Notes: generated by a model not told the origin, from the sequence alone. A stretch of DNA of 64,000 bases from a virus (IMGVR_UViG_3300032254_000001:280484-344483), one strand, 5' to 3'. Positions 31,330 through 55,980 are shown, counted from the stretch's first letter. Numbers and translations: made by a program.

Positions 31330-31354
31330 TATTTAAATATTAATCGTTATTACA

Positions 31355-31380
31355 ATAAGGGGCTTCGGCCCTTTATTTTT
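31355..31380 (+). terminator. Rho-independent terminator closing the structural operon
   Basis: ATAAGGGGC-TTCG-GCCCTTTAT hairpin (C-UUCG-G loop) followed by T tract. Confidence 0.85.
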
Positions 31381-31395
31381 GGTTGTTCAAACTCG

Positions 31396-31424
31396 TTTAC
31401 ATATTACTTTTAATCTGTTATACT
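31396..31424 (+). promoter_or_regulatory. sigma70-type promoter heading the modification operon
   Basis: TTTACA(31396-31401)-17 nt-TATACT(31419-31424), extended TG; GAGG SD before 31441. Confidence 0.65.
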
Positions 31425-31440
31425 ACAACAGAGGTAATAT

Positions 31441-31758
31441 ATGCAAACTAATCAAATTGAAGCTGAAGTCGCGAATGTTAGAAAGAAATTCGATCACGAC
31501 TCTGCAAAACAAGTCCTAAAAGAAAAATACGAAGCCAAAATGCTATTTGCAGCTTTTGGAGGTATGTGGAAAGCCGGTCCGGAATTACTATCCCTTTTAA
31601 CTGCCGTAGGCACAACACCCGAAATAGTGCTAGTAGACGAATACGGAAATCCTTGTAAAGTTACATCGCTTGAGCTATACAACATGGTAGCTACACGCTG
31701 GCAAGAACAAATGAATGCCTGGTACGCAGAGTTTACAGAGATGCAATCAAAACGATGA
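31441..31758 (+). CDS. Hypothetical protein, first gene of the operon
   Basis: ORF with SD; ATGA overlap to 31755. Confidence 0.65.
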   Translation: MQTNQIEAEVANVRKKFDHDSAKQVLKEKYEAKMLFAAFGGMWKAGPELLSLLTAVGTTPEIVLVDEYGNPCKVTSLELYNMVATRWQEQMNAWYAEFTEMQSKR

Positions 31759-33390: not shown

Positions 33391-33716
33391 AGCAAATGAC
33401 TAATTTCTTTGAATCATTGGAATTACTTGAAGAACAACCTAAGCAAAAGATCGAGTTTAGGTTGTACTACGATCCAAAGACAAACGAACCGTTGTTTTAC
33501 ACAATGGAAGATGAGCCCGGGGATTATATTTCAATTACCCCGGAAGAGTTTTCAGAAATGCGACTTGACGTATTTGTTAAGGATGGCAAAATTGAAAAGA
33601 AACGTGCAATTTCAATAGGTAAACTGGTACCTTCTGATGAAGGTTACCGAACAACAAAAAACGATATATCAATTATCGGCAACGAACAGTACTGGGATTT
33701 AAAAACATATGAGTAA
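33387..33716 (+). CDS. Hypothetical protein
   Basis: GTG start overlapping upstream stop; EFRLYYD motif. Confidence 0.6.
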   Translation: MKQMTNFFESLELLEEQPKQKIEFRLYYDPKTNEPLFYTMEDEPGDYISITPEEFSEMRLDVFVKDGKIEKKRAISIGKLVPSDEGYRTTKNDISIIGNEQYWDLKTYE

Positions 33717-34635
33717 TCAAATAGACATAGCAGATTTAGATGTAATTTTTCTTAGTTACGATGAACCACAAAAAGAAGAGTTCTGGGTTAAGATTAAAAA
33801 CATGGTGCCGTGGGCCGTCAGGGTAGACGGTGTTAAAGGTAGCGATGCGGCACACAAAGCCGCAGCTGATGCAAGTGAAACAGATCGCTTTGTATTAATA
33901 GATGGCGACAACATGCCGGACTTAGACTTCTTTAATCTAACACTTGACCTTAAAGACAACGAGTACGAAAATGCAGTTTTCCGTTGGAGAGCACGTAACC
34001 ACATCAATGGATTAATGTACGGCAACGGTGGATTAAGTTGTTGGACAAAAGAGTTTGTGTACAATATGAAAACACACGAAGCAAGTGAGGGCAATGACGA
34101 CACGGATGTAGAGTTTTGTTTTGATCCAATGTATTGGGCTATGCATGACTGCTACAGTACAACATATCCAAATGGTAGCAAGTTCCATGCATGGCGCGCT
34201 GGGTTCAGAGAAGGTGTAAAGATGTGCTTAGACCGAGGCAAGAAGCCTACTATCGGAGAGTTCAAAGATAGTGTACACAAGCGCAACATGGATAATTTAA
34301 GTATCTGGCACAACATAGGCAGCGATGCAGAATTTGGATGCTGGGCAATACTTGGTGCGCGTATGGGTACGCAAATGACAATGTTAACTGACTGGGATTA
34401 TAAAGAAGTACAGAGCTTTGATAGCTTAGAAAAGATTTATAACACAATGGTACATGATGTTCCGTCGCAAGTGCAAAAAGTTGGACAAGAACTTAAAACT
34501 CAACTAGACTTGCCAATTATAACTCCTAACGCAGACCACAGCACATTCTTTAAACATCACTATCATGCTAGCTGGCACAACAAAGGTATAATGGTACGTG
34601 AGATAGATGTTATACGTAACCTAGAGGGCTGGTAG
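33709..34635 (+). CDS. Putative GT-A (GT2-like) glycosyltransferase
   Basis: DVIFLSYDEP...RVDGVKGSDAAHKAAA...FVLIDGDN (DxD)...YGNGG...AWRAGFREGVKM. Confidence 0.65.
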   Translation: MSNQIDIADLDVIFLSYDEPQKEEFWVKIKNMVPWAVRVDGVKGSDAAHKAAADASETDRFVLIDGDNMPDLDFFNLTLDLKDNEYENAVFRWRARNHINGLMYGNGGLSCWTKEFVYNMKTHEASEGNDDTDVEFCFDPMYWAMHDCYSTTYPNGSKFHAWRAGFREGVKMCLDRGKKPTIGEFKDSVHKRNMDNLSIWHNIGSDAEFGCWAILGARMGTQMTMLTDWDYKEVQSFDSLEKIYNTMVHDVPSQVQKVGQELKTQLDLPIITPNADHSTFFKHHYHASWHNKGIMVREIDVIRNLEGW

Positions 34636-35672
34636 TGCAAATAGACATAGAAGAATTTGTTTGCAACGATGAGCTTTCAGATGTTGGTCGCTTATCTGCG
34701 ATCATAATAGAAACTATGCGACACCACGGCACTATTACATTGCACACAGAAGAATTAATCTCCGGAGAAGAGATTGGCTTGTTTGATTTGCTAGATAGTC
34801 TGTGTAGTTACTACAACTGGGATCCAACACAAATACAACTATCGTATCAAAATTATAGAGAATTAGAAAACGAAACTCGCTATACAGTTAAAAGGATTGT
34901 CCATTCAGGTGAGCAGATATGGCCAGGTACACTCAACGATACTAAGAATGTACTTCAGTTACGTGATTGGAACAAAGAAGAAATGTTCGGTATGTTCACA
35001 GGCCGTATGAATTTTACAAGACTATATGCACACGATAAACTAAGAAAGTTCAGGTACAAAGACCAGTGCTTGTCAAGTATGAACCAAGCTCCTAGCGACT
35101 TTAGAGTTAATCAACGTGTGCTATTGCAGTACTTAAAAGAGTCTGGCACAAGCTGGGACGAAATAAAAGATATCGAACCGTATAGTGATATTAGCGAAGT
35201 GATAACTCCGCCGATAACATTAGCCCGTCAGCAGTTCATAGGTTGGGAAGATATATACGAAAAGATTGGAATTGAGATTGTATGCGAAACTGCTGAGTCA
35301 CAGAACATTGTAGCATTTACAGAAAAATTAATACGCCCAATGGCGTATAAGCGACCATTTTTATTAATTGGCAGTCCAGGACTAGCACACGAGTTAGCTG
35401 ATGAGAATTCGTTTATAATGCAGAAACTTAAAACATTGCCTATCCCTGTAGGACCAATACGTTTCTTTCAAAATGTAATACCGCTTAATTACGATAACCT
35501 AGCAGGGGCTGAGCGAGTTGATGCTGTATTTGAAATACTCGACGGTCTAATAGAATCAGGTATGATTGATACGATACTTGATGATTGCAAAGACGACATA
35601 GAGTGGAACCACAAGATTGCATACGATTGGTTAAAGAATGGTTACAACCCTGAGGGATTATTAAATGAGTAA
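34635..35672 (+). CDS. TEK-motif (GT10-like) putative glycosyltransferase
   Basis: IVCETAES...FTEKLIRPMAYKRPFLLIG. Confidence 0.45.
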   Translation: MQIDIEEFVCNDELSDVGRLSAIIIETMRHHGTITLHTEELISGEEIGLFDLLDSLCSYYNWDPTQIQLSYQNYRELENETRYTVKRIVHSGEQIWPGTLNDTKNVLQLRDWNKEEMFGMFTGRMNFTRLYAHDKLRKFRYKDQCLSSMNQAPSDFRVNQRVLLQYLKESGTSWDEIKDIEPYSDISEVITPPITLARQQFIGWEDIYEKIGIEIVCETAESQNIVAFTEKLIRPMAYKRPFLLIGSPGLAHELADENSFIMQKLKTLPIPVGPIRFFQNVIPLNYDNLAGAERVDAVFEILDGLIESGMIDTILDDCKDDIEWNHKIAYDWLKNGYNPEGLLNE

Positions 35673-37065
35673 AGGCGACGAAGTAGATAAAGATTTTAAA
35701 AGTAAGTTTCTCTCAGACGCAGAAATAATGAAGGAAAAACTAGATGAAGTTAGCCCTTCGATGTGTCTTGCTAAGTGGAAACAAGTGTCATTGCATTTAC
35801 CAACAGGGTTAAACAACTCATGTTACCATCCGCCATTGCATCAAATTAGTATAGAAGATATTAAAAACAATCCTTCTGGCTTACACAACACAGCACAGAA
35901 AGCCATTGCACGTCAGCAAATGATCGACGGTGTTAGACCAGACGAGTGTAGCTATTGCTGGGCAATGGAAGATAACGGAGAACTGAGTGATCGTCACTAT
36001 CGCAGTGGCGAACCGTGGGCCGCAAAGGACCTAAGTGCTATTGTTGCGAACCCAGACGCAAACGTCACTCCTTCATATGTTGAAGTGAACTTCAACCATG
36101 CGTGTAACTTAGCATGTTCGTATTGTTCCCCTCAGTTCTCCTCTTCATGGTTGCAGGAGGTTAAGAAGTACGGCGCATACCCTACAACACAACCTCATAA
36201 CGATCCTGCATATTTTACAGGCACTAGACGTCCTATTCCAAACAGAGAAGAGAATCCATACGTAGATGCATTTTGGGAATGGTGGCCTGAGCTGTATAAA
36301 GACTTACAACATTTTAGAATGACTGGCGGTGAACCGCTTATGGATAAGAATACGTACAGGGTATTTGACTATGTACTTGAGCATCCAAAAAGTGATTTGC
36401 ATTTAAACGTTACAAGTAACTTGTCTGTAGATCAAAAGCTTTGGGACAAGTACATGGGCTATGTTAAGCAATTAACAACAGGCAAGATAGAACACTTCAT
36501 GCAGTACGTATCGGTAGACACATGGGGCAGACAGGCTGAGTACATACGACACGGATTAGATTTTAATCTATTAATAGAACGTGTAGAACAGTTTTTAACA
36601 GAGATACCTAGCTATAGTAGTGTCACATTTATTATCACAATGAACAATCTGTCTATACATAATTTAAGACAGCTAATGATGTGTATATTGCATTTAAGAA
36701 GGAAGTACAGCAAAGACTTCCAGCGTGTATGGTTCGATACTCCTGTACTACGCACACCTGAATGGCAAAGTATGCAAGTACTTCCAGATCATTTTGTTAG
36801 CAAGTTAGAAGATGCAAAAGCTTACATGGAAGATAATATAGAAACAGAAGAGTCTCGCTTCCATGGCTTTAAGGATTACGAAATACAACGTATGAGCAGA
36901 GACATTGCGTGGATGAAGCAAGGTACAAACAACGTGGAGCAAAAGAAAGCAGACTTCTATCGCTTCTTTAGCGAAGCAGATAAACGCCATGACACTAACT
37001 TCTTAGAAGTATTCCCAGAGCTTAAAGCTTTTTGGGAGGAATGTCAGTACTATGCTAAACGATAA
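35665..37065 (+). CDS. N-terminal twitch radical SAM protein 1
   Basis: CLAKW..SCYHP..CSYCW ahead of CNLACSYC (CxxxCxxC); TGGEP. Confidence 0.9.
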   Translation: MSKGDEVDKDFKSKFLSDAEIMKEKLDEVSPSMCLAKWKQVSLHLPTGLNNSCYHPPLHQISIEDIKNNPSGLHNTAQKAIARQQMIDGVRPDECSYCWAMEDNGELSDRHYRSGEPWAAKDLSAIVANPDANVTPSYVEVNFNHACNLACSYCSPQFSSSWLQEVKKYGAYPTTQPHNDPAYFTGTRRPIPNREENPYVDAFWEWWPELYKDLQHFRMTGGEPLMDKNTYRVFDYVLEHPKSDLHLNVTSNLSVDQKLWDKYMGYVKQLTTGKIEHFMQYVSVDTWGRQAEYIRHGLDFNLLIERVEQFLTEIPSYSSVTFIITMNNLSIHNLRQLMMCILHLRRKYSKDFQRVWFDTPVLRTPEWQSMQVLPDHFVSKLEDAKAYMEDNIETEESRFHGFKDYEIQRMSRDIAWMKQGTNNVEQKKADFYRFFSEADKRHDTNFLEVFPELKAFWEECQYYAKR

Positions 37066-38191
37066 AAACAAACACGCATTCTGTCCAGCGCATTGGGATG
37101 ATATTCATTATGCTCCGTCACAAGGTTACTTGTACGGTTGCTGTAAAGCTACGCCTATTCCAATTGAAGACGTAAACGAATTAGATCAGCGTAAACAAAA
37201 TGCATTAGACGGTGTTAGGAACCCAAGCTGTAATTACTGCTGGAAGACAGAGGATGCAGGCAATGAAAGCCTACGTCATAACAAGCTAAGGGAGTGGGAC
37301 GGCACATCAAATTGTCGTAAATTAACGCTAGTACTTGGTAACCTTTGTAATCTACAATGCACTTACTGTAATGAAAAGTACAGTTCAAAGTGGCAAACAG
37401 ATAAGAAAAGATTCGGTGAAATTAAAATGCAGTACGACACTGACATTTATTATGCTGGCAAGACTTGTGTTAACAAAGAGTCGCAAGTGTACATAGACTT
37501 CTACAATAAAACAAAGCCAAAGTCTTTAACAGTGTCAGGCGGTGAGCCACTTATAGGCAACGTGTTTAAAGACATCTTAACAGAGTGCGACTTGTCACAG
37601 CTACAAGACATAAGTGTTTCTACTAACCTAAACTATACAAAGCGTGATACAATTGACAAGCTACTAGAGTTCAAAGATAGCCATAATATAACACTTAATG
37701 CCAGTTTGGACACTGTAGATAGCAATGTGCAAGAGTACTTACGTTTTGGTTTCAATATGGATAGATTTAAAAGTAATCTCTATGATCTATTAGATAACAC
37801 ACCAGTTCGGATAAATTTCATTACACTTGTTACGGCTCAATCGGTAAAAGGTATTTACAATCTGTGCAAATTCGTGTATCATTTAAAGACAGTATATCCT
37901 AATAGGGTTAACTGGTACGCATCAACCTGCGTTACACCAGCGACACATACATTCGATATACTAACCGAAACAGAAAGAGCACAAGCTTTGGATGAAGCAA
38001 GGAAAGTACAGCAAGAGATACAGGACCAGTTAGAGTTAATTAATATTAACAAAGTAATTGCAACATTAGAGAATGCAAAGTACAATGAAGAACTTCGCAA
38101 CGACCAATCAAATTTCTTTAAGCAGTTTAATGAAAGGCAAGACATACAAACACCGCAGGAACTAGGATTTTTAATAGATGCTAACAGATAA
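37052..38191 (+). CDS. N-terminal twitch radical SAM protein 2
   Basis: FCPAHW..GCCK..CNYCW; CNLQCTYC; SGGEP. Confidence 0.9.
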   Translation: MLNDKNKHAFCPAHWDDIHYAPSQGYLYGCCKATPIPIEDVNELDQRKQNALDGVRNPSCNYCWKTEDAGNESLRHNKLREWDGTSNCRKLTLVLGNLCNLQCTYCNEKYSSKWQTDKKRFGEIKMQYDTDIYYAGKTCVNKESQVYIDFYNKTKPKSLTVSGGEPLIGNVFKDILTECDLSQLQDISVSTNLNYTKRDTIDKLLEFKDSHNITLNASLDTVDSNVQEYLRFGFNMDRFKSNLYDLLDNTPVRINFITLVTAQSVKGIYNLCKFVYHLKTVYPNRVNWYASTCVTPATHTFDILTETERAQALDEARKVQQEIQDQLELININKVIATLENAKYNEELRNDQSNFFKQFNERQDIQTPQELGFLIDANR

Positions 38192-39290
38192 GAATAAGCA
38201 CACATTTTGTCCTGCTAAATGGCAGGAGGTTGTTTTTCATCCGTCACGGAATCTTGTTTTTGCTTGCTGTAAATCAGAAAACTATGATGGCGGAACACTT
38301 GACGAACAAAGAGATAATTTACTAAATGGCGTTAAGGATCCAAGCTGTAATTACTGCTGGGACGCAGAAGAAAAAGGCGGTCGTAGTTTAAGGCACGAGA
38401 AGCTTGAAAACTGGGACGGCACAATAGAATTAAAACTACTTGATATCTTTATAAACAACGTATGTAATCTACAATGTACATACTGTTCTCCGGCTGCAAG
38501 TAGTAAGTGGTCAACTGACATTGAAAAGAATGGTCAGTACCCTATGTATCCATTGTACAATACAGTCGCAGATAAAATTACTAACGAACAGCTGGTAGAA
38601 TATATTAACGATTATAGTCCAGCAAACAAGATTACACTAATTGGCGGCGAGTTACTTATTAACCCGCAAACAAACTTAATCCTTAATAATATTCCAGCTG
38701 GTATTCGTATTGAAGTCCCATCAAATATGTGCTATGACAAGTACGATGTATTAGACAAGCTGTCAGCACTAACAGAAACAAATGATGTTTGGGTTAAGCC
38801 GAGTATTGATACCATAAATAATAATGTTAAGCAGTACATACGACGCGGCTTCGACCCAGAGCTAGCGCAAACAAATATTCAATACATCTTAGAACATACT
38901 AACATAAATTTATGTTTCATGACATTAATATCACCGTACACTGTATGGGATCTAGTAGAAACGCAACGATACATTCAAGACTTAGAAGCACGTTACCCTA
39001 ATAGAGTTATATGGAAGCTTTCGTATTTGCACTCTCCAGAGAACCAGTCTTTTGTTATTCTAACTGATAAAGAAAGAGCTCAAGCAATTGAAGTAACTAA
39101 AGCAGCACAGTTAGAATCTACAGAGAAAAATAAAAAGCTCGTAGCAGTTGTATTAAATGCTTTAAGCTGTTCAGAATTTAATCCGGCACTACGCCAAGAA
39201 CAACAAACTTTCTTTAAGGAATTTAATAGAAGACACAATGTAATAACTCCTAATGAGTTACAATTTATAATAGAGGAAACACCATGTTAG
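38178..39290 (+). CDS. N-terminal twitch radical SAM protein 3
   Basis: FCPAKW..ACCK..CNYCW; CNLQCTYC; IGGEL. Confidence 0.9.
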   Translation: MLTDKNKHTFCPAKWQEVVFHPSRNLVFACCKSENYDGGTLDEQRDNLLNGVKDPSCNYCWDAEEKGGRSLRHEKLENWDGTIELKLLDIFINNVCNLQCTYCSPAASSKWSTDIEKNGQYPMYPLYNTVADKITNEQLVEYINDYSPANKITLIGGELLINPQTNLILNNIPAGIRIEVPSNMCYDKYDVLDKLSALTETNDVWVKPSIDTINNNVKQYIRRGFDPELAQTNIQYILEHTNINLCFMTLISPYTVWDLVETQRYIQDLEARYPNRVIWKLSYLHSPENQSFVILTDKERAQAIEVTKAAQLESTEKNKKLVAVVLNALSCSEFNPALRQEQQTFFKEFNRRHNVITPNELQFIIEETPC

Positions 39291-39553
39291 ACGATAGAGA
39301 AGATACACCAGGCGACTTAGTACACGACGGCAACGAAGCGCAATGGAGACAGAAGTTTTGTGATGAAACAGGCCATAGTATGGAATGCGTTGGCGAAACC
39401 GTAACTGGCATGGCCGAGATAGCCGCTGCCGCTGCTAATGCAGCAGATGCAGAATTGTACTTAGAGGATATCATTAACCAGATGGGCGTGGAACTGTTTG
39501 AAAAGCATCTACGTAACATCCTAGCCGCTAAGGATTGTGAGTGCAATAAGTGA
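39284..39553 (+). CDS. Small acidic Cys-containing hypothetical protein
   Basis: 89 aa, GAGG SD, overlaps both neighbours; EIAAAAANAA run; ends DCECNK. Confidence 0.6.
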   Translation: MLDDREDTPGDLVHDGNEAQWRQKFCDETGHSMECVGETVTGMAEIAAAAANAADAELYLEDIINQMGVELFEKHLRNILAAKDCECNK

Positions 39554-40575
39554 GTACAATCTTTATAGGCGACTTCCATCCTGAGTCTTGGCTCACAGGG
39601 AAGTACGAGCAAGATGCGATTGCCACTATATTCAAAAATATAAACAGCAAGTACGCTGGGCAAACGAATCTCCTTATTAACGGCACTTGGTTCGGCCCAC
39701 AGTTTACACACAACAGAGTATGGACAGACATTATCACGTTAACAGAGTCTGGCTTTAGAGTTGATAATGTGTTTTACTTAAACATTATTGATGCTGCGGT
39801 TATGGGACCACTAGACAGAGTACTGCCAGTACTTGGAGATCCTAATGTATTTTTAATGGGTAACTTCCCGGAAAGCGATCATTCGTTTTACGTGTTCTCT
39901 TACATGGTAGCAAATGAATTTAAACAGTACACAGATGATGAAGTACTGCCAGTAGACTTTAAGTACAAGTTTATAAACTACAACCGAAAACCTAAGCCTG
40001 CTAGAGTAAGCTTAGTTAATGCAATGTTTGACGCAAAGCTACACGAGCATGGTATCATTACACTAGGTGGCACTGAAACAAACGAGGCTTTAACTGTAGA
40101 GGAAGAAGTTGACCACTTAGATAACAGTGGCGAGAACGACGATTTAGAAATACCAAATGACATTATGTCCTTAGGTGATATAAAGCTTTGGAATAAGCAT
40201 TTCCTGAATGTAGTTTCGGAGACTGAAACTAACCAAGACTCAAATGTGTTTATATCCGAAAAGATATTTAAACCAATGATTGGCTTACGTCCGTTTATAG
40301 TACACGGCAACGTTAACACATATAAATGGTTACGTGATAACGGATTCAAAACGTTTAACCACTTGTTTCCAGCTGATCTCGAAGATCCTAAGACAATGGA
40401 AGATGCTGTTATTACTGCATTGCAATGGCTGTCTGAGCAAACTGACGAAGCTTTAGCTCAAATATATAAAGACATTTTGCCTGATTTAATGTATAATAAA
40501 CAACGGTTCTTTGAATTTGCCAAGGAACAAGAACAAAAAATGAAGGATACTGTATCCTGGAGAAACAATTTGTGA
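39550..40575 (+). CDS. TEK-motif (GT10-like) putative glycosyltransferase
   Basis: KFINYNRKPK...VVSETE...FISEKIFKPMIGLRPFIVHG...GFKTF. Confidence 0.5.
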   Translation: MSTIFIGDFHPESWLTGKYEQDAIATIFKNINSKYAGQTNLLINGTWFGPQFTHNRVWTDIITLTESGFRVDNVFYLNIIDAAVMGPLDRVLPVLGDPNVFLMGNFPESDHSFYVFSYMVANEFKQYTDDEVLPVDFKYKFINYNRKPKPARVSLVNAMFDAKLHEHGIITLGGTETNEALTVEEEVDHLDNSGENDDLEIPNDIMSLGDIKLWNKHFLNVVSETETNQDSNVFISEKIFKPMIGLRPFIVHGNVNTYKWLRDNGFKTFNHLFPADLEDPKTMEDAVITALQWLSEQTDEALAQIYKDILPDLMYNKQRFFEFAKEQEQKMKDTVSWRNNL

Positions 40576-41924
40576 GCTTAAGAAAACCCGGGCGCGAAAC
40601 TGATAAAGAAGTACTAGACTACATTAATTCGTTTAGTCCTTCAATGTGCATGGCAAAATGGTATAACGCTACTATATGGTTAGGCAGCGGTATGTCTACT
40701 AGTTGCCATCATCCACCAGCACATAAAATTTCAATTGATGAAATAGCTAAGAACCCAAGCGCAATACATAACACACCTGAAAAGAAAAACGACCGCGAAC
40801 TGATGCTTAAGGGCGAACGTCCTGCAGGCTGTCAGTACTGTTGGAAAATTGAAGACATGGAACGCGATGCAATAAGTGATCGTGTATACAAGTCTGTAAT
40901 CTATAATGATGAGGAAGTTGAACATGCAGTATCTCTCCCAGTATTGGAAAACGTCAATCTCAAAACCCTTGAAATTGCTTTTGATCGCACATGTAACCTT
41001 AGTTGTAGTTATTGCAATCCTGCTTTTAGCACATCTTGGGTAAAAGATATTAAGAACAATGGTCCGTACATAGAGTTACAAAGTGACGGCCGCAACCACT
41101 TTACACATACACACGATTCGGCAGAACCGTTTGGTCCAAAGGAAGTAAACCCTTATGTAGAAGCATTCTTTGAGTGGTGGGAAACCGACCTTAAAGATAG
41201 TCTACAGGAGTTACGTTTAACAGGTGGCGAACCACTAATGAGTGGCCACACCTGGCGTTTGTTTGACAAGTTTATACAAGATAAACCAGATATGCAGTTT
41301 GCTCTTAATAGCAATTTGTGTGCCAAGGATAACTTAATTGATAAGTTAATCGAAACCACACATAGCATATCTAACTTCCAATTGTACACAAGTAATGAAA
41401 GTGTTGGTGAACAAGCTGAATACATACGCGATGGACTGGACTTCCTGCAATGGAATAATAACATATATAAGATACTAACAGAGGGCAATGTTAAAGGCTT
41501 GCATATGATGTGTACTGTTAATGCACTGTGCCTTGACACGTTACCTGAGTTCTTAGATACGTTATTAGAAATGAAAAATGTACACGGAAAAGACTTCCCA
41601 ACATTCTCATTAAACATATTAAGATTTCCATCTTTCCAAAGTCCATTGGTACTGTCAGATGAAATTAGAATGGAATATGCAACAGAGCTCCAGTACTGGT
41701 TAACTGAAAATAGATACAATGAAAACTTGCATCAAATGGAAATTAATCAGTTACAACGTCTAATAGATTATTTAGATGTAGTTAAGACACCACACGATGG
41801 AACGTTTGATATGCCATCGTTACATAATGATTTTAAAAAGTTCTACGCTCAGTACGATGCACGTCGTGGCAAGGACTTTTGTAAAACATTTCCAAGACTA
41901 GCGGATTGGTACAATGGGCTTTAA
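40572..41924 (+). CDS. N-terminal twitch radical SAM protein 4
   Basis: CMAKW..SCHHP..CQYCW; CNLSCSYC; TGGEP. Confidence 0.9.
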   Translation: MSLRKPGRETDKEVLDYINSFSPSMCMAKWYNATIWLGSGMSTSCHHPPAHKISIDEIAKNPSAIHNTPEKKNDRELMLKGERPAGCQYCWKIEDMERDAISDRVYKSVIYNDEEVEHAVSLPVLENVNLKTLEIAFDRTCNLSCSYCNPAFSTSWVKDIKNNGPYIELQSDGRNHFTHTHDSAEPFGPKEVNPYVEAFFEWWETDLKDSLQELRLTGGEPLMSGHTWRLFDKFIQDKPDMQFALNSNLCAKDNLIDKLIETTHSISNFQLYTSNESVGEQAEYIRDGLDFLQWNNNIYKILTEGNVKGLHMMCTVNALCLDTLPEFLDTLLEMKNVHGKDFPTFSLNILRFPSFQSPLVLSDEIRMEYATELQYWLTENRYNENLHQMEINQLQRLIDYLDVVKTPHDGTFDMPSLHNDFKKFYAQYDARRGKDFCKTFPRLADWYNGL

Positions 41925-42192
41925 ACGAGTTACTCCTGGTGTCACAGTACGCGAAGTTGATGTATCGTTTGTTATGCCGCCTGAACCGACGGTTAGTTTT
42001 GACGTAATAGACGACAGAACAATTGAAATTCGGAACTGGCCGTGGTGGTATTCTACTAGAGTTGCTAACAAGGTAAATGATTGGATGGATGCACACACTG
42101 AAAACGGGCGAAGCTTAATTGTTGACGACCGCATTATTTTTGACAAACCTGAGGAACTAACAATGTTTGTTTTAGCATGGAGTGGTAAATGA
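41914..42192 (+). CDS. Small protein of the W..[TC].G..F...F.L family (see 53827-56193)
   Basis: C-terminal DWMDAHTENGR...IIFDKPEELTMFVLAW. Confidence 0.55.
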   Translation: MGFKRVTPGVTVREVDVSFVMPPEPTVSFDVIDDRTIEIRNWPWWYSTRVANKVNDWMDAHTENGRSLIVDDRIIFDKPEELTMFVLAWSGK

Positions 42193-43484
42193 GTTACGAT
42201 TATAACAGTTGGGAACCTGTAAAAATTTCCGTAGACGACTTAAATGAAGTTGAGACATACCTGCTTAAAAACAGTAAAACATTCTGTATGTATCCGTGGA
42301 TACATTTACATGCATACCCTACAGGCGAAACGTATCCTTGTTGCCATGCTGATATGCACCAGTCCGTAGGTAGTACACGTAAGGACGCTATGAAAGATAT
42401 TTGGAATAGCGATGGCATGAAAACAATGCGCCGTAATATGTTAAGTGGTGTTAAGTGCGGGGAGTGTACAGGTTGTTATGAACAAGAGAAAAGCGGTTTC
42501 TTTAGTGGCCGCAAGAGTGCTAACAAGCACCACGGACACCATATAACTAAAGTAGAAGAAACACATGCCGACGGGCAGTTAGACGAATTTCAAATGTCGT
42601 ACTGGGATATAAGATTTAGTAATTTATGTAATCTTAGTTGTCGCAGTTGCGGACACATTTTCAGCAGTAGTTGGTACAAGGACCAAGTTGCGTTGAGCGG
42701 TACCCAGTGGGGTGCAGACAATAAAGCATTGCAGATAGCAGGTCGCTCCAAAACAGATATGTTTGAACAGCTTATGGAACATATCGACTACGTTGAACAA
42801 ATATACTTTGCAGGCGGTGAGCCTCTGACAATGGAAGAGCACTATAAGATTCTTGACGAATTAGAACGTAGGGAGATGTTTCATGTTCGCCTGATATACA
42901 ATACTAATTTCACACAGACCAAACTTAAAGATAGGGATGTCTTTGACTACTGGCGTAAGTTTGATTCTGTTAGTGTTGGAGCGAGTCTCGATGCAATGGG
43001 TGACCGAGCAGAGTATATAAGGAAAGGAACCAAATGGAGTGTAGTGGAAGAGAATAGACGTAGGATGTTAGAAATATGTCCGAACGTAGACTTTTATATA
43101 AGTCCAACAGTAAGCATTATGAATGCGTTACACGTAGTTGACTTCCACCGCGATTGGGTAGAGAAAGGATTCCTTAGGGCACAGGACCTGAACATTAATA
43201 TTCTTCAGGATCCTATGCACTACAGAATAGATATAGCTCCGGAAGAGTATAAGCAGTTAATTCGATTTGCGTATAAGGATCACTTGTACTGGCTTAAAGA
43301 TCGCGATTCGTTGAACCGTGCATCAACAGGCATACGTAGTGCATTACACTTCTTAGATGCAACAGACAATTCACACTTAGTAGATACTTTCTGGGCTAAG
43401 ACAAAAGAGCTGGATGGAATACGTAACGAAAACTTACTTGATTTTATTCCTGAACTAGAGGCATTAAATGGAACTACCAAATAA
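42189..43484 (+). CDS. N-terminal twitch radical SAM protein 5
   Basis: FCMYPW..PCCH..ECTGC; DIRFSNLCNLSCRSC; AGGEP. Confidence 0.9.
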   Translation: MSYDYNSWEPVKISVDDLNEVETYLLKNSKTFCMYPWIHLHAYPTGETYPCCHADMHQSVGSTRKDAMKDIWNSDGMKTMRRNMLSGVKCGECTGCYEQEKSGFFSGRKSANKHHGHHITKVEETHADGQLDEFQMSYWDIRFSNLCNLSCRSCGHIFSSSWYKDQVALSGTQWGADNKALQIAGRSKTDMFEQLMEHIDYVEQIYFAGGEPLTMEEHYKILDELERREMFHVRLIYNTNFTQTKLKDRDVFDYWRKFDSVSVGASLDAMGDRAEYIRKGTKWSVVEENRRRMLEICPNVDFYISPTVSIMNALHVVDFHRDWVEKGFLRAQDLNINILQDPMHYRIDIAPEEYKQLIRFAYKDHLYWLKDRDSLNRASTGIRSALHFLDATDNSHLVDTFWAKTKELDGIRNENLLDFIPELEALNGTTK

Positions 43485-44661
43485 ATCATTCTGTGTACTT
43501 CCGTGGATTAGTATAGAAGCAAGTCCAATTGGAACCGTGCGTCCTTGTTGTCTTGCTGACGATGAGATCCTTAAAGACAACGGTGAGAAGTACAACCTAA
43601 ACACTGACGGCATGCTAGGCATACAAGACAGCAAGTACATGGAGAAATTGCGCGAAGAATTCTTAGCAGGCAAACGTCCAGAGACTTGTCGTAAGTGTTG
43701 GGCAGAAGAAGATGTTGGCCGTACTAGTAAGCGAATGAATACTATTAAACGTCTAGGGTCTATGTTAAGTGATATTACCGAATGGGATAACAAGTCTATA
43801 GACTTACGTTTTGTAGATTTAAAGCTTGGTAACATATGTAATCTAAAATGCAGGATCTGCGGTAGTTGGAGCTCTAGTAAGTTTGCAGGTGAAGAGATAA
43901 AGTTCGCAGTAGACGGTACCTTCCATAGAGAAATGAATAAGAAAGGTGCGTGGCCACGCACAGCTGACAAGTTTTGGGATGAGCTTAACTGTGCATCTGG
44001 AGACATACGTTACTTGGAATTCACTGGCGGTGAACCGTTTATGATACGTGAGCATTTTGAGTTCCTAGAGGTTTTGGTACATAACGGACTTGCAAATCAA
44101 ATTGAAATCCATTATAATACCAATGGTACACAATGGCCTGCGAAATACGTGCATCTTTGGAAAGAGTTCAAACATGTAGAAATTGCGTTCAGTATAGATA
44201 ACACAGGCGCACGTTTTGAGTACGAGCGTACCAATGCTAAGTGGGACGAAGTAAACGAAAATATCCAAAAGTTCATTGGCTTACGAGCTGAAAGCAAGAA
44301 CATTTCGTTGCAGCTATGCACAACGATTAACTTGTACAATGTTCTTTATTTGCCTGAAGTATTTCATTGGGAACACTTTAAAGACTTTGATTTTGTATTT
44401 TGGAATATGTTACATGATGCACCTGAAAACTGCATTAAGTCTTTACCACGTGGTGCCAAGGATGTAATTGCTGTTCAGTTATTAGGAATAGCAGACGTAG
44501 ATGCAAAGACACGTGAAGAATTTAAAAACGTTGTTAACTTTATGCGGTCGGGCGAAGGCGTTGACCCGTATGAAAACATTGAACGATTAGACAGCAGGCG
44601 TGAAGTGTCATTAAAGGATACACACCCAGAACTATATGAGTTATTATTCCATGACAAGTGA
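43468..44661 (+). CDS. N-terminal twitch radical SAM protein 6
   Basis: FCVLPW..PCCL..TCRKC; GNICNLKCRIC; TGGEP. Confidence 0.9.
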   Translation: MELPNKSFCVLPWISIEASPIGTVRPCCLADDEILKDNGEKYNLNTDGMLGIQDSKYMEKLREEFLAGKRPETCRKCWAEEDVGRTSKRMNTIKRLGSMLSDITEWDNKSIDLRFVDLKLGNICNLKCRICGSWSSSKFAGEEIKFAVDGTFHREMNKKGAWPRTADKFWDELNCASGDIRYLEFTGGEPFMIREHFEFLEVLVHNGLANQIEIHYNTNGTQWPAKYVHLWKEFKHVEIAFSIDNTGARFEYERTNAKWDEVNENIQKFIGLRAESKNISLQLCTTINLYNVLYLPEVFHWEHFKDFDFVFWNMLHDAPENCIKSLPRGAKDVIAVQLLGIADVDAKTREEFKNVVNFMRSGEGVDPYENIERLDSRREVSLKDTHPELYELLFHDK

Positions 44662-44857
44662 CGAAGAAGCAGTAGCAGCAATACACAAAAGTCTTGAAGA
44701 ACGACTAAAAGAAAAAGAACAAGCCGAGTGCGACTTTTTCAACAAAGCCTCAGATGAGGTAAAAGAACAGTACTTCAAACGTTGGCGCGAAGTTAACGAC
44801 CCAGGCACAGAACCGAGATTTATAAGAGAATATGCAGAAGCCAGACGAAAAGCCTGA
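44651..44857 (+). CDS. Small charged hypothetical protein (68 aa)
   Basis: MTSDEEAVAAIHKS...; overlaps both flanking rSAM genes. Confidence 0.5.
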   Translation: MTSDEEAVAAIHKSLEERLKEKEQAECDFFNKASDEVKEQYFKRWREVNDPGTEPRFIREYAEARRKA

Positions 44858-46160
44858 TACGCTTTGCCTAGCACCGTGGCTACACACGTACCTTTCTCCA
44901 CAAACAGAAAGGCGTATGTGTTGCGCGAGTCGTGAACCAGCACAATCATTTGAGCAGTACATAGACACCAGTAAAGGCACTAGCACATACAATCCGATGA
45001 CGCTTGATGAGCACATGAACAGTGATCACATGAAGTCTGTACGCAGGCGCATGATGGCAGGTGAAACATTAAGTGAATGTGATGTGTGCAATAACAAACT
45101 ATTGAACACAGATGTATACAGAAGTTACTTCTGGAACATGTTTCAGCATCACTACGATGAGATATGGGATAAGACAGAGGAAGACGGAACCACAACATGT
45201 AAGCCAATAAGTTGGGATTACAGATTCAGTAACCTGTGCAATTTTAAATGTCGTATGTGTGGCGACATGTTATCGTCAAGTTGGGAAAGTGAACAACGTT
45301 CTAACGATATGATAGACTGGGGCAATCCGCAGAATAACTGGATGCAAAAAGATGTCCGTAAACAAATAAGCAAATTCCAAGACACTGAAATAGAAAAAGA
45401 ATTTAGCGATGCAGTAGAAGATCATCGCATAGAAGAAATCTACTGGGTTGGCGGCGAGCCACTAATGTTCGAACAGCACTGGAAATACATGAAACGTATT
45501 GTAGAGCTAGGCGATGGGCATAAAGTGTATGCACGTTACAACACAAACCTGTCTCAAATAGTGTATAAAGGCATACACTTGTACACAGATATCTTACCGC
45601 ATGTACGTGATTGGCAGATATGTGCAAGCATAGACGGCACAGGAGCAATAGGTGAATACATTAGAACTGGATTAAAATGGCCAGTATTCTTAGCAAATTA
45701 TAAGGAAGGACTTGCAATTTCGCGCCATCCTAGGCAGATGAGACTGGACTTTACACTGACATTACCGGGCCTTTTTGAGCTGAAAAACATGTTTGACCTT
45801 AGTAAGGAGTTAAATACTACGTTACTTGCTAAAGTTACATTTGCATTCGGTTCGAACGTTTTAATGTCGCCTTTAGCATTGCCAAAAAGTATATTACATA
45901 GAATAGTAAATGACTTTTTAGTATATGCGAATGAGGAGGGATATGACCAAAATCAGCAGCCATTGATTGACGTTATGACCAATATTTTAAGCAGGCCTAC
46001 TTTTGAAGAAGAATGGCCAAGCGACTACAAGCAAGGAGCGATTGACGGCAAACGCCGCATAGAGAAAGTTGAAAGCATTCGACTTGCTTCGTTGACGCTG
46101 GAAGAGATTTTACTAACAGAGGATGCAGAAGCATATGAGTGGTACCGAGCAATACCTTGA
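44832..46160 (+). CDS. N-terminal twitch radical SAM protein 7
   Basis: LCLAPW..MCCA..ECDVC; DYRFSNLCNFKCRMC; VGGEP. Confidence 0.9.
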   Translation: MQKPDEKPDTLCLAPWLHTYLSPQTERRMCCASREPAQSFEQYIDTSKGTSTYNPMTLDEHMNSDHMKSVRRRMMAGETLSECDVCNNKLLNTDVYRSYFWNMFQHHYDEIWDKTEEDGTTTCKPISWDYRFSNLCNFKCRMCGDMLSSSWESEQRSNDMIDWGNPQNNWMQKDVRKQISKFQDTEIEKEFSDAVEDHRIEEIYWVGGEPLMFEQHWKYMKRIVELGDGHKVYARYNTNLSQIVYKGIHLYTDILPHVRDWQICASIDGTGAIGEYIRTGLKWPVFLANYKEGLAISRHPRQMRLDFTLTLPGLFELKNMFDLSKELNTTLLAKVTFAFGSNVLMSPLALPKSILHRIVNDFLVYANEEGYDQNQQPLIDVMTNILSRPTFEEEWPSDYKQGAIDGKRRIEKVESIRLASLTLEEILLTEDAEAYEWYRAIP

Positions 46161-47223
46161 CACGATTGTGATGTCATTGAGAAACAGTTCTACTGGGGAT
46201 ATACTTCCAGTATATATCAATGTATTTGATGATTCATTGAGTGAGAAATGGTACAACGCCCTTAATGAAATCATTAAGAATAAGTTGCACCTGGAAAAGA
46301 ATTATCAATTTTTAGGGATTCCTGGTTACGAACGAAACGGAACGTACATCACTGACCAAATAAACAAATCGATCGACGCAATTAATAAAGCTGATATTGG
46401 ATATCAGATAGACGACTTCTTCTCTCTTGAAAATACTATGCTCGACATAGATGGAGAAGTAGGAGAGGGTCTGCCTGGCCGCGAGCTAGTACATGACAAG
46501 TTCAATAAGTTACATCGTTACTTCGAAGACTTACAAGGTACTAGCGGTAACATGTCACCTTACTATAATAAAGCTGATGCTGATACACGCTGGCACATAC
46601 GCCAGTTGAACTTACTGTGCCACGAATACGAGTCGTGGGCATTAAGCTATCGCAAAGAAGCACACGCTCCTGAATGGATGCGCCCATCGCAATTAATGTG
46701 TTATTTAAAAGCACCGCGCTTCACACTTACAGAAGATGACTTTGAAAGCTTTGGCATTGAAACAATTGCACGACCACTAGGCGGTGTCTTTGTTGGTGTT
46801 AACAAAGCAGTAGGCAAGCATCATTGGGAAGTGTTCCAAGATGAAGATGGTAGTAGAATAGATGAGTTAACAACGTCTGCAATGCGTTCACAAACAGAAG
46901 CAGCAGGCGACTTTGATATCGAGTGGGCAAACGATCCAGGTGCATATCAATTTATGAAAGATAGAATAACTAAGTTCAGAATTTGGTTAACGGAAAATGG
47001 ATTCGACCCTGAAGACAAAGCATTAACAATAGGCCACCCGCAGGTAGCACAGGTAGATCTAAAGCGAACATTTGGCACAGAAGATTACACAGTAATTTGG
47101 GATCAATTGTTTGATTACTTAGATGTTGTTAGTATAGAAACTAAGGATGCCTACGTAGAATATAAATACCACTGGAGCGATTCAGATTACAAGGAGCAAC
47201 AAATCAAATGTTTAAATGGTTAA
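46135..47223 (+). CDS. Hypothetical protein (~362 aa)
   Basis: Long ORF in operon; start uncertain (46123 or 46135); LNLLCHEYES motif; no family recognised. Confidence 0.6.
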   Translation: MSGTEQYLDTIVMSLRNSSTGDILPVYINVFDDSLSEKWYNALNEIIKNKLHLEKNYQFLGIPGYERNGTYITDQINKSIDAINKADIGYQIDDFFSLENTMLDIDGEVGEGLPGRELVHDKFNKLHRYFEDLQGTSGNMSPYYNKADADTRWHIRQLNLLCHEYESWALSYRKEAHAPEWMRPSQLMCYLKAPRFTLTEDDFESFGIETIARPLGGVFVGVNKAVGKHHWEVFQDEDGSRIDELTTSAMRSQTEAAGDFDIEWANDPGAYQFMKDRITKFRIWLTENGFDPEDKALTIGHPQVAQVDLKRTFGTEDYTVIWDQLFDYLDVVSIETKDAYVEYKYHWSDSDYKEQQIKCLNG

Positions 47224-47324: not shown

Positions 47325-48848
47325 ATGACAACACGAAATATACTAGGGTTCAGCGCCGGGTTCCATGACGCAGGCATGTCAGTAGTAGATGGCAACAACG
47401 GTAAGATATTGTTTGCTAGTCATAGCGAACGTTTTAGCAAACGCAAACACGATCCGGATCTGTGTAGATCGATAATAAACGAAGCACTAAGTCACGGTAC
47501 AGTTGCTAAAGTTGCGTACTACGAGAATCATTGGTTAAAGAAAGCTAGGCAGTTATTTGCAGGCCAGCCAACAGACGATTGGCATTGGACACTGCGAAGC
47601 GAAATAAGTCATCACTTTCCGCATCCTGATCACCAAGTACTGCTAGACAACGTAAAGTTAAAAGGTTACGGACACCACAAGTCACATGCCGCAGCAGGCT
47701 TCCAGACTAGTCCATTTGATCAAGCTACCGTTGTCGTTATTGATGCCATTGGTGAGTTTGATACTATTACTATATGGAATGCATACTACGATCATGCTGG
47801 CAATGCGAAGTACAAATTAAAGCATCGCCAACTATATCCACATAGCATTGGATTATTCTATAGCGCAATTACACACAATGTTGGCCTACGTCCACTAGAC
47901 GAAGAGTACATTTTAATGGGCATGGCTGCATACGGCGATGCTAGTAAAACAGTAGATACTATTAAAGATAGATTAATTGAGTCTACTAACCCACCTAAGT
48001 TTAAAGAGAACTTGCACATTGGATATAATGAAAGCTTAACCAACGAGGATGTTACTGACTTTGATGTAGCAGCAGGCGCACAAGAACTAGTAGAAGAAAT
48101 GATTGAAAATGTTATGAAGAAGTCTAAGCACTATGATTATTCTAATAACCTAGTGTTCATGGGCGGTGTTGCTTTAAACTGTTCTGCTAACAGACACTTA
48201 GGCAAGTACTACAATGACATTTGGATTATGCCTAACCCAGGCGATGCAGGTAGCTCATTAGGTGCTGCGGCATTAGCATACGGTAAGAAGCTGCAATGGA
48301 ATGATGCTTACTTAGGCTATAATATAGAAGGTGAATACCCTGTACAAGAATTAGTTAATTCACTTAAGAAAGCTAAGATTGCAGGTGTTGCAAATGGCAA
48401 GGCTGAGTTCGGTCCACGCGCATTAGGTAATCGTTCATTGCTAGCTGACCCACGCGGTAAGGCTATTAAGGATATAGTAAACGATATAAAGCGTAGACAA
48501 AAGTTCCGTCCGTTCGCACCAGTGGTACTTGCAGAACATGCAAGTACTTACTTTGATATGCCAAATGGATTTGAACGAAGCGACTACATGCAAGTCACCG
48601 CACATTGTAAGAAGCCAGAAGAGTTCCCTGCTATAATACACAAAGACGGAACAAGCAGAGTGCAAACAGTACCTGCAAATGGTTCAGGTATTAGAAGACT
48701 TCTTGAAGCATGGTACAAGGAAACTGGTTGTCCAATGTTACTTAACACATCATTAAATATCAGAGGCGAGCCAATGGTAAACGATGAAAGCGATGCAAAA
48801 CGCTTTGAAGAAGAGTACGGTATAAAAGTACTTACATCTGTGTTATAA
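47325..48848 (+). CDS. Carbamoyltransferase (NodU/CmcH/TobZ family)
   Basis: FHDAG, SERFSKRKHD, HHKSHAA, GGVALNC, GDAGSSLGAA, EFGPRALGNRS, FRPFAP, DGTSRVQTV, LNTSLN. Confidence 0.93.
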   Translation: MTTRNILGFSAGFHDAGMSVVDGNNGKILFASHSERFSKRKHDPDLCRSIINEALSHGTVAKVAYYENHWLKKARQLFAGQPTDDWHWTLRSEISHHFPHPDHQVLLDNVKLKGYGHHKSHAAAGFQTSPFDQATVVVIDAIGEFDTITIWNAYYDHAGNAKYKLKHRQLYPHSIGLFYSAITHNVGLRPLDEEYILMGMAAYGDASKTVDTIKDRLIESTNPPKFKENLHIGYNESLTNEDVTDFDVAAGAQELVEEMIENVMKKSKHYDYSNNLVFMGGVALNCSANRHLGKYYNDIWIMPNPGDAGSSLGAAALAYGKKLQWNDAYLGYNIEGEYPVQELVNSLKKAKIAGVANGKAEFGPRALGNRSLLADPRGKAIKDIVNDIKRRQKFRPFAPVVLAEHASTYFDMPNGFERSDYMQVTAHCKKPEEFPAIIHKDGTSRVQTVPANGSGIRRLLEAWYKETGCPMLLNTSLNIRGEPMVNDESDAKRFEEEYGIKVLTSVL

Positions 48849-54096: not shown

Positions 54097-54137
54097 AATC
54101 TACTCATTGTGTTTAATGTATTTTAACATAGTTTAGC

Positions 54138-55979: not shown

Positions 55980-55980
55980 A

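Follow-up and report, generated by a model that had tools for sequence, protein, structure and literature searches.

A conserved jumbo-phage operon encodes an array of predicted radical SAM enzymes with an N-terminal twitch-type domain and may serve in glycan tailoring

We analysed a window of 64,000 nucleotides (the whole stretch IMGVR_UViG_3300032254_000001:280484-344483) from a complete 344-kb T4-like jumbo-phage genome, and found that seven plus-strand ORFs at 35665-46160 (r1 to r7) belong to the N_Twi_rSAM family or are divergent relatives of it, and that they stand in a predicted operon whose core is conserved among related phages. The ORFs are predicted to encode active radical SAM enzymes, in which a twitch-type domain lies before the SAM-cleaving partial barrel and not after it. 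Because variable GT-B glycosyltransferases, a NodU-type carbamoyltransferase and conserved proteins of unknown function are encoded in the same operon, the reading that we favour, with about even confidence, is that the array carries out the radical tailoring of a sugar or of a phage-made glycan.

The preliminary description had reported seven ORFs with a cysteine cluster ahead of an intact CxxxCxxC motif and had suggested a likeness to the N_Twi_rSAM family. We recovered exactly these ORFs, and the likeness is real, as all seven match the HMM of the family (NF033640) end to end, over nearly the whole of its 398 positions: r1 (35665-37065) with 321.9 bits, r2 (37052-38191) with 152.2, r3 (38178-39290) with 152.9, r4 (40572-41924) with 308.5, r5 (42189-43484) with 401.7, r6 (43468-44661) with 328.3 and r7 (44832-46160) with 285.2. 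Judged by the curated cut-off of 170 bits for the whole-protein score, r1, r4, r5, r6 and r7 are members, each spanning about positions 1-397 of the model; r2 and r3 (E 1e-44) fall below the cut-off, align over model positions 2-383 and are divergent relatives with the same architecture. The next-best family HMMs reached only 15-35 bits against cut-offs of 130-850, and none of the ORFs was assigned to a housekeeping radical SAM family.

The array shares with NF033640 a four-cysteine twitch domain, followed by CxxxCxxC, a GGE motif and a helical C-terminal region. Pfam searches placed a SPASM-type domain at residues 33-96 of r5 (E 1.3e-9), followed by Radical_SAM at 142-299, and a SPASM domain at residues 9-78 of r6 (E 2.6e-4), likewise ahead of Radical_SAM. 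Four N-terminal cysteines (C33, C51, C93 and C96 in r5 numbering, C-x17-C-x41-CxxC), the CxxxCxxC cysteines (C147, C151, C154) and GGE are invariant in an alignment of eight paralogs, which left out a further copy, r8, that nonetheless has CxxxCxxC and GGE. Among the 337 unique copies of at least 300 aa from the window and 80 related loci, the CxxxCxxC cysteines and GGE are kept in every one and all seven cysteines in 330, so that the cluster and SAM-binding residues are retained throughout, as had been claimed for the SAM-cluster cysteines. The N-terminal domain presumably binds an auxiliary [4Fe-4S] cluster, and we take its cysteine spacing to be that of the BtrN twitch cluster.

We modelled the fold of r5, the copy closest to the bacterial members, and compared it with solved radical SAM enzymes. 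Its core (residues ~134-396) superposes over 210-230 residues on BlsE (7vob, Z 13.0), SuiB (5v1q-t, 12.7), anSME (4k36-39, 12.6), CteB (5wgg, 12.6), DesII (8hzv, 12.3) and SkfB (6efn, 12.2), with viperin and MoaA at Z 11.4-11.6. These six enzymes carry a C-terminal SPASM/twitch domain, whereas the domain order of r5 is reversed, and in sequential structural alignments no solved chain aligned with its N-terminal 130 residues. A PDB sequence search gave no sequence-level relative (best E 0.35). The best structural matches, counted as tied within 1 Z, include sugar-acting (BlsE, DesII), peptide-acting (SuiB, anSME, CteB, SkfB) and nucleotide-acting enzymes (viperin, MoaA). As these neighbours cover the core only, they do not identify the substrate of r5, and as the substrates of the six enzymes with C-terminal domains differ from one another, none of them predicts it.

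The count of seven copies was correct for the array but not for the genome, which holds nine. The eighth, r8 (plus strand, 63204 to the window end at 64000; 419 aa), runs over a 127-bp terminal repeat and continues in the first part of the genome record, and the ninth, the N_Twi-type gene r9, lies on the minus strand at genome positions 191307-192395. A tree separated r1, r2, r3, r4 and r8 (subfamily A) from r5, r6, r7 and r9 together with bacterial and Vibrio-phage members (subfamily B) on a branch with 99% SH-aLRT, at which the tool warned that long branches meet; this agrees with the proposal of two subfamilies, each contiguous within the array. The paralogs are 16-37% identical (r2 and r3, 37.5%), and r1, r4, r5, r6 and r7 each form an ortholog clade of their own (support at least 98) across about 80 related phage contigs. 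Hence, the copies are old and diverged, and the idea of an expansion in the sense of a recent local burst has to be given up. The accessory genes r2, with orthologs in two of 80 loci, and r3, with none found in the 80 related loci, are the sole lineage-specific additions among the seven. Purifying selection on each of the five core genes is strong (dN/dS 0.064-0.099), with no sign of relaxed selection, which fits the earlier suggestion that each catalyses a distinct active step. Metagenomic relatives of the r5 ortholog at about 65% identity or above number in the thousands, and in three related complete phages the family reaches at least 10 to 16 copies. The low-oxygen host niche suggested in the preliminary description was not supported: the window comes from a microbial-mat metagenome, but a close relative with 16 copies turned up in no fewer than 24 studies of freshwater or lake water. 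Radical SAM enzymes also function in the cytoplasm of aerobes.

From the gene arrangement, we predict that the array belongs to one phage operon on the plus strand, from 31441 to about 50492. A single transcription unit is suggested because the gene ends overlap by 4-38 nt over 31755-47223, where the 171-nt gap before r7 is the sole break, and because a terminator and a promoter-like site closely precede the first gene. The intrinsic-terminator-like hairpin (31354-31377, plus strand; 10-bp stem and T run) closes the upstream tail-fibre genes. The sigma-70-like promoter (31396-31424, plus strand; TTTACA-17-TATACT, extended -10 TG), in the gap ahead of the first gene, is a consensus match only; promoter-like sites in the region are not above chance in number, and it is the position alone that argues for this one. 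The first gene encodes the conserved small protein p105 (31441-31758), detected by tblastn in 55 of 80 related loci and without a Pfam or NCBIfam match, and is followed by those of the paralogous proteins p271 (31755-32570), itself conserved, and p276 (32560-33390; hhalign probability 98.9%), of the conserved small protein p109 (33387-33716; 67 of 80 loci) and of p308 (33709-34635), a core protein of very high conservation (mean column identity 75%, dN/dS 0.077) with a DxD-like LIDGDN motif. The glycosyltransferase T345 (34635-35672) precedes r1. Between r3 and r4 lie p89 (39284-39553), a small non-conserved ORF found in one of 80 loci, and the glycosyltransferase T341 (39550-40575), and between r4 and r5 lies p92 (41914-42192), an isolated member of a family of small proteins whose other genes form an array at 53827-56193. 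Downstream of r7 come the conserved core protein p366 (46123-47223), which recurs in related loci, the carbamoyltransferase (47325-48848) and p545 (48855-50492; 6 of 80 loci), whose C-terminal half is homologous to p308 (hhalign probability 98.3%). A thymidylate-synthase-family gene adjoins the end of the operon. About 80 related jumbo-phage contigs share the gene order p271-p276-p308-r1-r4-r5-r6-r7-p366-carbamoyltransferase, with genes of the T341/T345 family (T34x) inserted in variable number.

We then looked at the other enzymes of the operon. The AF2 model of T341 (pLDDT 88.7) has two Rossmann-like domains in GT-B topology, and all 50 of its top 50 Foldseek matches in the PDB are GT-B enzymes; the same fold is assigned to its paralog T345 (family HMM, 202 bits). 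The structural matches of T341 range from Z 9.3 to 11.4 over 250-290 residues, and those tied at 11.4-10.2 are T4 beta-glucosyltransferase (BGT), the DNA glycosyltransferase of phage HY126, GT10 fucosyltransferases, WsaF and T4 alpha-glucosyltransferase (AGT). The T34x family has five copies in the genome. Its likeness to GT10 consists of a weak Atlas lead (0.79) and the tied structural match, along with an E-T...TEK-like motif in T341/T345 that we take to resemble the GT10 motif; PF00852 (Glyco_transf_10) was absent from all 13 members tested at E up to 5. The Atlas cluster of p308 is automatically named 'Glycosyltransferase 2-like', a lead only towards a putative GT-A glycosyltransferase, to which Pfam and PDB sequence searches gave no support. 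Likewise, p271 is a GT-A-like candidate by its DxD-like DAD motif and had no Pfam or PDB sequence match; the searches did not confirm a GT-A reading of p271, p276 or p308. The carbamoyltransferase, of NodU/CmcH type (PHROG 1601), contains PF02543 Carbam_trans_N (118 bits) and PF16861 Carbam_trans_C (167.7 bits). Assignment to the NodU equivalog is ruled out (131 bits against an equivalog cut-off of 1000). The sugar-metabolism genes elsewhere in the genome are those of a UDP-glucose 4-epimerase of GalE type (E 5e-76 to 4twr) and of a second NDP-sugar SDR, along with a weakly matching, DegT-like piece of an aminotransferase; neither a nucleotidyltransferase (PF00483) nor a GT2 enzyme (PF00535) was found in the genome.

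In the reading that we favour, the 5'-deoxyadenosyl radical formed by r1, r4, r5, r6 and r7 would abstract a hydrogen from a carbon of a sugar, which may be part of a nucleotide-sugar or have been transferred beforehand, and the twitch cluster may take up the handling of the electron of this intermediate, much as in BtrN and other twitch enzymes that act on sugars. Each core enzyme would catalyse a different tailoring step, for example, an oxidation, epimerisation, deoxygenation or rearrangement; further variety in the product would come from the variable glycosyltransferases and from the accessory r2 and r3, and the carbamoyltransferase would cap a glycan whose acceptor could be a virion protein, the host envelope or another molecule. 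The conserved radical SAM/GT-B/carbamoyltransferase operon, the GalE-type and NDP-sugar SDR genes, an A-type Fe-S carrier encoded by the phage (PF01521, genome 255301-255600), the presence of BlsE and DesII among the tied best matches of r5 and the glycan-type neighbours of the bacterial homologs are consistent with this reading. In the Bacteroidota, the family is rare (4-5 of 401 genomes) and occurs in tandems of two to four beside a methyltransferase-GT2 fusion, a GT11-like protein, GDSL/SGNH proteins and methyltransferases. Against it stand the spread of the tied matches of r5 over three substrate types, the absence of PF00483 and PF00535 matches from the genome, the unconfirmed GT-A reading, and r9 and many copies of the 16-copy relative G004, which are not beside sugar genes, as well as the DNA glucosyl- and arabinosyltransferases among the tied best matches of T341. 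We put forward only tentatively, with well below even confidence, the narrower proposal that this widespread freshwater and mat jumbo-phage lineage makes a glycan of its own, in which no fewer than five radical SAM reactions in succession precede a carbamoylation, and attaches it to the virion or to the infected cell.

The tied matches of r5 to anSME, SuiB, CteB and SkfB, together with the tail-fibre genes directly upstream of the operon, would also suit a modification of proteins or peptides, in which cross-links or oxidised residues are installed on the tail fibres, on a 4373-aa giant protein or on small tagged proteins, and the glycosyltransferases act on the same proteins. We consider this unlikely: the small ORFs beside the radical SAM genes (p89, p92 and p73) are missing from nearly all of the 80 related loci in which the radical SAM genes persist; the p92 family, present in one of 80 loci and with a single weak match in the 16-copy relative, is not linked to the array in relatives; the bacterial contexts are rich in glycosyltransferases and methyltransferases, without obvious precursor genes; and HMM and Pfam searches of the radical SAM ORFs detected no RRE-type or other peptide-binding domain. 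A RiPP-type radical SAM maturase system was rejected, with no conserved adjacent precursor or tagged substrate gene and no RRE domain.

The match of T341 to T4 beta-glucosyltransferase (Z 11.4), the HY126 enzyme (11.3) and T4 alpha-glucosyltransferase (10.2) raises the alternative of DNA hypermodification, whereby the GT-B enzymes would glycosylate a modified base, as in T4, RB69 or HY126, and the radical SAM enzymes and carbamoyltransferase would tailor the DNA-linked sugar. The glycodiverse cytosines of T4-like phages (PMC13326640) and the position of the thymidylate-synthase-family gene count in its favour; however, GT10 fucosyltransferases and WsaF lie within 1 Z of the DNA enzymes. In thymidylate-synthase homologs, D169N is diagnostic of 5-hydroxy-dCMP synthases (5hoC) and N177D of dCMP hydroxymethylase (5hmC) (PMC13326640), but the single PF00303 gene of this genome keeps the canonical signature MALPPCH and the equivalents of Asp169 and Asn177, and its best PDB relatives are true thymidylate synthases (E 1e-81). 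As this canonical enzyme is the sole PF00303 product, there is no visible route to a hydroxylated pyrimidine acceptor, and we regard DNA hypermodification as improbable. Slightly more improbable still is a nucleotide or small-molecule chemistry apart from glycans, on viperin-, MoaA- or QueE-like substrates, in counter-defence or host takeover. This would account for the copies scattered through replication and accessory regions, such as r9, which directly follows the genes of a DnaB-like helicase and a primase and has a SegE-type homing endonuclease nearby, and the many G004 copies without glycosyltransferase neighbours (ten of its 16 have no adjacent T34x gene), and it agrees with the structural matches to viperins and MoaA and with consistent weak secondary HMM matches to prokaryotic viperin, MoaA and QueE. 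The latter, however, amount to 15-35 bits where the cut-offs are 131-650 and stem from the core that these enzymes share, genes of glycan type neighbour the bacterial homologs, and the five core genes are fixed in the glycosyltransferase/carbamoyltransferase operon at about 80 loci.

No reaction is known for any member of NF033640, and the literature searched contained no paper on the family; for a family catalogued in this way, the conserved operon context provides a first testable hypothesis. The array is not peculiar to one genome, given the thousands of r5 relatives and the multicopy relatives described above. If the narrower proposal is true, it would give the N_Twi_rSAM family its first function and reveal a virus-run multi-step radical sugar-tailoring pathway, in which the copy number (about 9 to 16 per genome) would track glycan diversification in an arms race with the host. 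Should the enzymes tailor a phage-made glycan, they would open up new radical chemistry on carbohydrates and add a new level at which the phage surface or the host envelope can vary; should they act on proteins, DNA or nucleotides, this would likewise be without a reported precedent in phages. The cultured Vibrio phage K566, which has four copies, makes experiments possible.

The copy number of the family, nine in this genome and at least 10 to 16 in the three complete relatives, contrasts with none to four in the bacterial genomes searched. Bacterial homologs from Bacteroidia and Elusimicrobia MAGs share 37-40% identity with r5 and fall into subfamily B, whereas subfamily A had no bacterial member in the sample tested. 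In the cultured 255-kb Vibrio phages K566 and K567, four N_Twi-type genes are clustered; they are very divergent (23% identity to r5 over 95% of its length) and lie on long branches, and no homologs of T34x, p308 or p366 were detected beside them. Chloroviruses and mycobacteriophages glycosylate their virions with their own enzymes and have GT-B transferases and nucleotide-sugar enzymes in common with this phage. We know of no radical SAM enzymes in these systems or in those of T4 and RB69/HY126. Virus-encoded GT-B transferases and nucleotide-sugar enzymes are also shared with T4 BGT/AGT and the RB69/HY126 arabinosylation clusters (PMC13326640), and, as in such phage and virus glycosylation systems, the number of transferases varies between relatives. 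A T4-like environmental viral genome with 12 radical SAM genes and an A-type Fe-S carrier has been reported (Nishimura et al. 2017, PMC5332604), with the count and a discussion of Fe-S metabolism, and without naming a family, architecture, operon or function. That genome and this phage have in common their T4-like nature, many radical SAM genes and an A-type carrier of their own.

The seven radical SAM ORFs of the array (r1-r7) were found on the plus strand at window positions 35665-46160, as the preliminary description had placed them, and the likeness to the N_Twi_rSAM family that it had proposed was borne out, all seven matching the NCBIfam model NF033640 across almost its entire length. 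The 170-bit cut-off of this model is exceeded by five of the ORFs, while r2 and r3 score 152-153 bits. The runner-up families (MoaA, viperin, QueE and assorted SPASM maturases) scored 15-35 bits where their cut-offs are 130-850, and no housekeeping radical SAM enzyme can therefore be placed among r1-r7; the HMM search thus did not yield the housekeeping assignment that had been named as the outcome contradicting the earlier view. The inverted architecture is also real, as r5 and r6 have the Pfam SPASM-type domain ahead of Radical_SAM. Invariant across eight aligned paralogs are four N-terminal cysteines, the CxxxCxxC motif, GGE and a few other residues; all seven cysteines are kept in 330 of 337 unique sequences, and GGE in every one of them. 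The family has been catalogued only by name; no publication dealing with it, or with phage arrays of such enzymes, turned up in the literature searched.

The count of seven holds for the array but not for the genome, since a genome-wide family search added two N_Twi_rSAM genes. One of these, r8 (419 aa), extends over window positions 63204-64000 and genome positions 1-590. The source record is 344,483 bp long, with a 127-bp direct terminal repeat, and the window is its final 64 kb; r8 spans this repeat, and its ORF is whole only when the record is taken as circular or concatemeric. The other, r9 (genome 191307-192395, minus strand), lies directly after DnaB-like helicase and Toprim primase genes, with a SegE-type GIY-YIG gene nearby.

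An IQ-TREE phylogeny of 59 sequences, two of them bacterial and four from Vibrio phage K566, separated r1, r2, r3, r4, r8 and their orthologs from r5, r6, r7, r9, the two bacterial and the four K566 copies with 99% SH-aLRT support, at a split where long branches meet. This agrees with the earlier sorting by motif into two subfamilies, each contiguous in the array. Since the bacterial members cluster with r5, the r5 side (subfamily B) is the canonical form; the r1 side (subfamily A) has no bacterial member within the small sample in the tree.

The idea of a local, recent expansion is contradicted by paralog pairwise identities of only 16-37% and by the five core copies being syntenic, with their own clades, in related loci. 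A scan of IMG/VR with r5 gave 134 such loci, 80 of which were compared gene by gene. Their fixed order comprises tail-fibre-like genes, the conserved operon proteins p271, p276 and p308, then r1, r4, r5, r6, r7, p366 and a carbamoyltransferase, and members of a GT-B glycosyltransferase family (T34x) are inserted in varying numbers within it. Each of r1, r4, r5, r6 and r7 forms a separate clade (support at least 98); r2 has orthologs in two of the 80 loci and r3 in none. Using our own Nei-Gojobori (NG86) script, restricted to pairs with dS <1.5 because most pairs are synonymous-saturated, we obtained dN/dS values of 0.064 (r1), 0.095 (r4), 0.074 (r5), 0.086 (r6) and 0.099 (r7), similar to p308 (0.077), below the carbamoyltransferase (0.137) and showing no relaxed selection on these five copies. 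Given such low values and the retained cysteines and GGE, the paralogs are old, each is maintained in its own right, and each is presumably an active enzyme; as far as sequences can tell, the preliminary description is largely right on activity.

Three related complete phages (328-349 kb) each hold from at least 10 to 16 family copies above the cut-off; our own profile search of one of them, G004, gave 16. Metagenomic relatives of r5 number in the thousands (7793 of 8000 scored candidates), and the best 120 are all at ~65% identity or more. About one third of the r5 orthologs (in L003, L011, L035 and ~30 other loci) and a few r6 orthologs are extended at the N-terminus by a further domain of 120-140 aa. 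In this genome the domain has a single homolog, encoded by an ORF of its own (window 2092-2628, minus strand) that adjoins a half-length T34x-like ORF (window 1562-2095, minus strand). A glycosyltransferase half-domain was ruled out for the extension of the r5 orthologs (hhalign probability of 0.8% against T34x).

Throughout 31755-47223 the genes overlap by 4-38 nt, with the exception of a 171-nt gap ahead of r7, and directly upstream of the first operon gene a strong hairpin of terminator type (31354-31377) is followed by a match to a sigma-70-like promoter (31396-31424). The 64 kb contain a single copy of the T4 late-promoter octamer TATAAATA (47161, before the carbamoyltransferase gene) versus 6.3 copies expected by chance; being rarer than chance, it is uninformative on timing here. 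It is scarce although the window holds structural genes, and the late-promoter consensus of this phage probably differs from that of T4. A single 4373-aa ORF (window 14979-28100, plus strand) lies between baseplate-like and tail-fibre-like genes.

Two members of the T34x family, which is five-strong in this genome, are part of the operon: T345 (34635-35672) and T341 (39550-40575). The AlphaFold2 model of T341 (72 sequences) has a pLDDT of 88.7, its best 50 Foldseek matches in the PDB are all GT-B glycosyltransferases, and VIA-align gave tied Z values of 10.2-11.4 for T4 beta-glucosyltransferase, the phage HY126 glycosyltransferase, GT10 fucosyltransferases, WsaF and T4 alpha-glucosyltransferase, which makes the predicted GT-B fold secure. 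A NodU/CmcH-type carbamoyltransferase is encoded at 47325-48848. Among the other operon proteins, p271 and p276 are mutually paralogous and homology links p308 to the C-terminal half of p545, with DxD-like motifs in both groups. Pfam, NCBIfam, PHROGs and profile-against-PDB searches returned nothing usable for p271, p276, p308, T34x, p366 or p545, and sequence and profile searches gave no match confirming a GT-A nature of p271, p276 and p308. The Atlas matches of p366 (LXG and others) look like noise. A nucleotide-sugar gene set (genome 95520-98040, minus strand; L121 and L122) encodes a GalE-type UDP-glucose 4-epimerase, a weak DegT-like aminotransferase piece (212 aa) and a second NDP-sugar epimerase/dehydratase-family (short-chain dehydrogenase) protein; Pfam matches to NTP_transferase and GT2 are lacking in the genome. 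We see an about even chance that this is a phage glycan-tailoring operon, in which the five conserved N-terminal-twitch radical SAM enzymes would perform a distinct radical step each.

The substrate is not settled by the r5 model (pLDDT 93.8), as its structural matches mix sugar-, peptide- and nucleotide-acting enzymes: residues ~134-396 align with radical SAM cores at tied Z values (BlsE 13.0, SuiB 12.7, anSME 12.6, CteB 12.6, DesII 12.3, SkfB 12.2, viperins ~11.5, MoaA 11.5). The N-terminal 130 residues are covered by no structural match, as expected for a permuted order under sequential alignment, and a phmmer search of r5 against the PDB gave nothing significant. As to peptide or protein modification, the position of the operon after the tail-fibre genes makes virion proteins possible targets; however, the small ORFs beside the radical SAM genes (p89, p92 and p73) are not conserved in relatives, and the p92 family was found in 1 of 80 loci, with one weak match in the relative carrying 16 radical SAM copies. 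This small-protein family has about nine members sharing a C-terminal module of ~40 aa, eight in tandem (window 53827-56193, minus strand) and p92 (41914-42192, plus strand) between r4 and r5, and is nearly absent from related phages. In Bacteroidota, the N_Twi_rSAM family occurs in only 4-5 of 401 genomes, as tandems of two to four, with neighbours that include a methyltransferase-GT2 fusion, a GT11-like protein, GDSL/SGNH proteins, methyltransferases and Fe/2OG oxygenases; this context, from a small sample, points to glycan or small-molecule tailoring over peptide precursors. With r5 as the sole query, two bacterial loci came up, whose neighbours (CHAT, RDD, Nramp and an enolase-superfamily gene) were not informative. 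An Elusimicrobia MAG (G002, contig C5, 40-68 kb) has dense radical SAM-like matches, about ten of them weak and one a full 720-aa N_Twi_rSAM.

Under DNA hypermodification, the glycosylated acceptor would be a base, as in T4-like phages with glycosylated 5-hydroxycytosine, where the acceptor base comes from thymidylate-synthase homologs with D169N (PMC13326640). The sole member of the thymidylate-synthase family in this genome, however, keeps the canonical Asp169 and Asn177 equivalents and has true thymidylate synthases as its best relatives (E 1e-81), and hence the known route to the acceptor base is absent. Compared with enzymes of solved structure, this one (window 50996-52057, minus strand, 353 aa) has ~40 aa inserted between residues ~206 and ~245. 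Nucleotide chemistry is hinted at only by the weak secondary HMM matches of the radical SAM enzymes and by scattered copies, such as r9 by the helicase and primase genes and those of G004.

The low-oxygen host niche proposed from the many Fe-S enzymes did not hold up: the window DNA is present in microbial-mat metagenome runs (and in no RNA run), and the 16-copy relative is widespread in lake water, being present in runs of at least 24 freshwater/lake-water studies. The oxygen regime of a host habitat is not readable from an enzyme count alone.

The major capsid protein is of T4 type (62-67% identity to Vibrio phage 2.275.O, Pseudomonas phage PA5oct, Sinorhizobium phage Phosso and Salmonella phages PHA46 and SE_PL), which, in a record of this size, indicates a T4-like jumbo phage. 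The 10.5-kb array region had no megablast match among 50,697 phage records, and tblastn of r5 found four of these records only (23-26% identity); at this sensitivity, the array was not detected in the capsid-related cultured phages 2.275.O, PA5oct and Phosso. Vibrio phage K566 (cultured, 255 kb; L108, record 161548-168284) has four clustered N_Twi-type radical SAM genes amid hypothetical genes, one of the four carrying only a hypothetical annotation itself. The present phage also encodes an A-type Fe-S carrier (genome 255301-255600, minus strand; PF01521, 53 bits), and IscU was not found in its genome. With many radical SAM genes and an A-type carrier, it recalls a T4-like environmental genome reported to hold 12 radical SAM genes together with such a carrier (PMC5332604).
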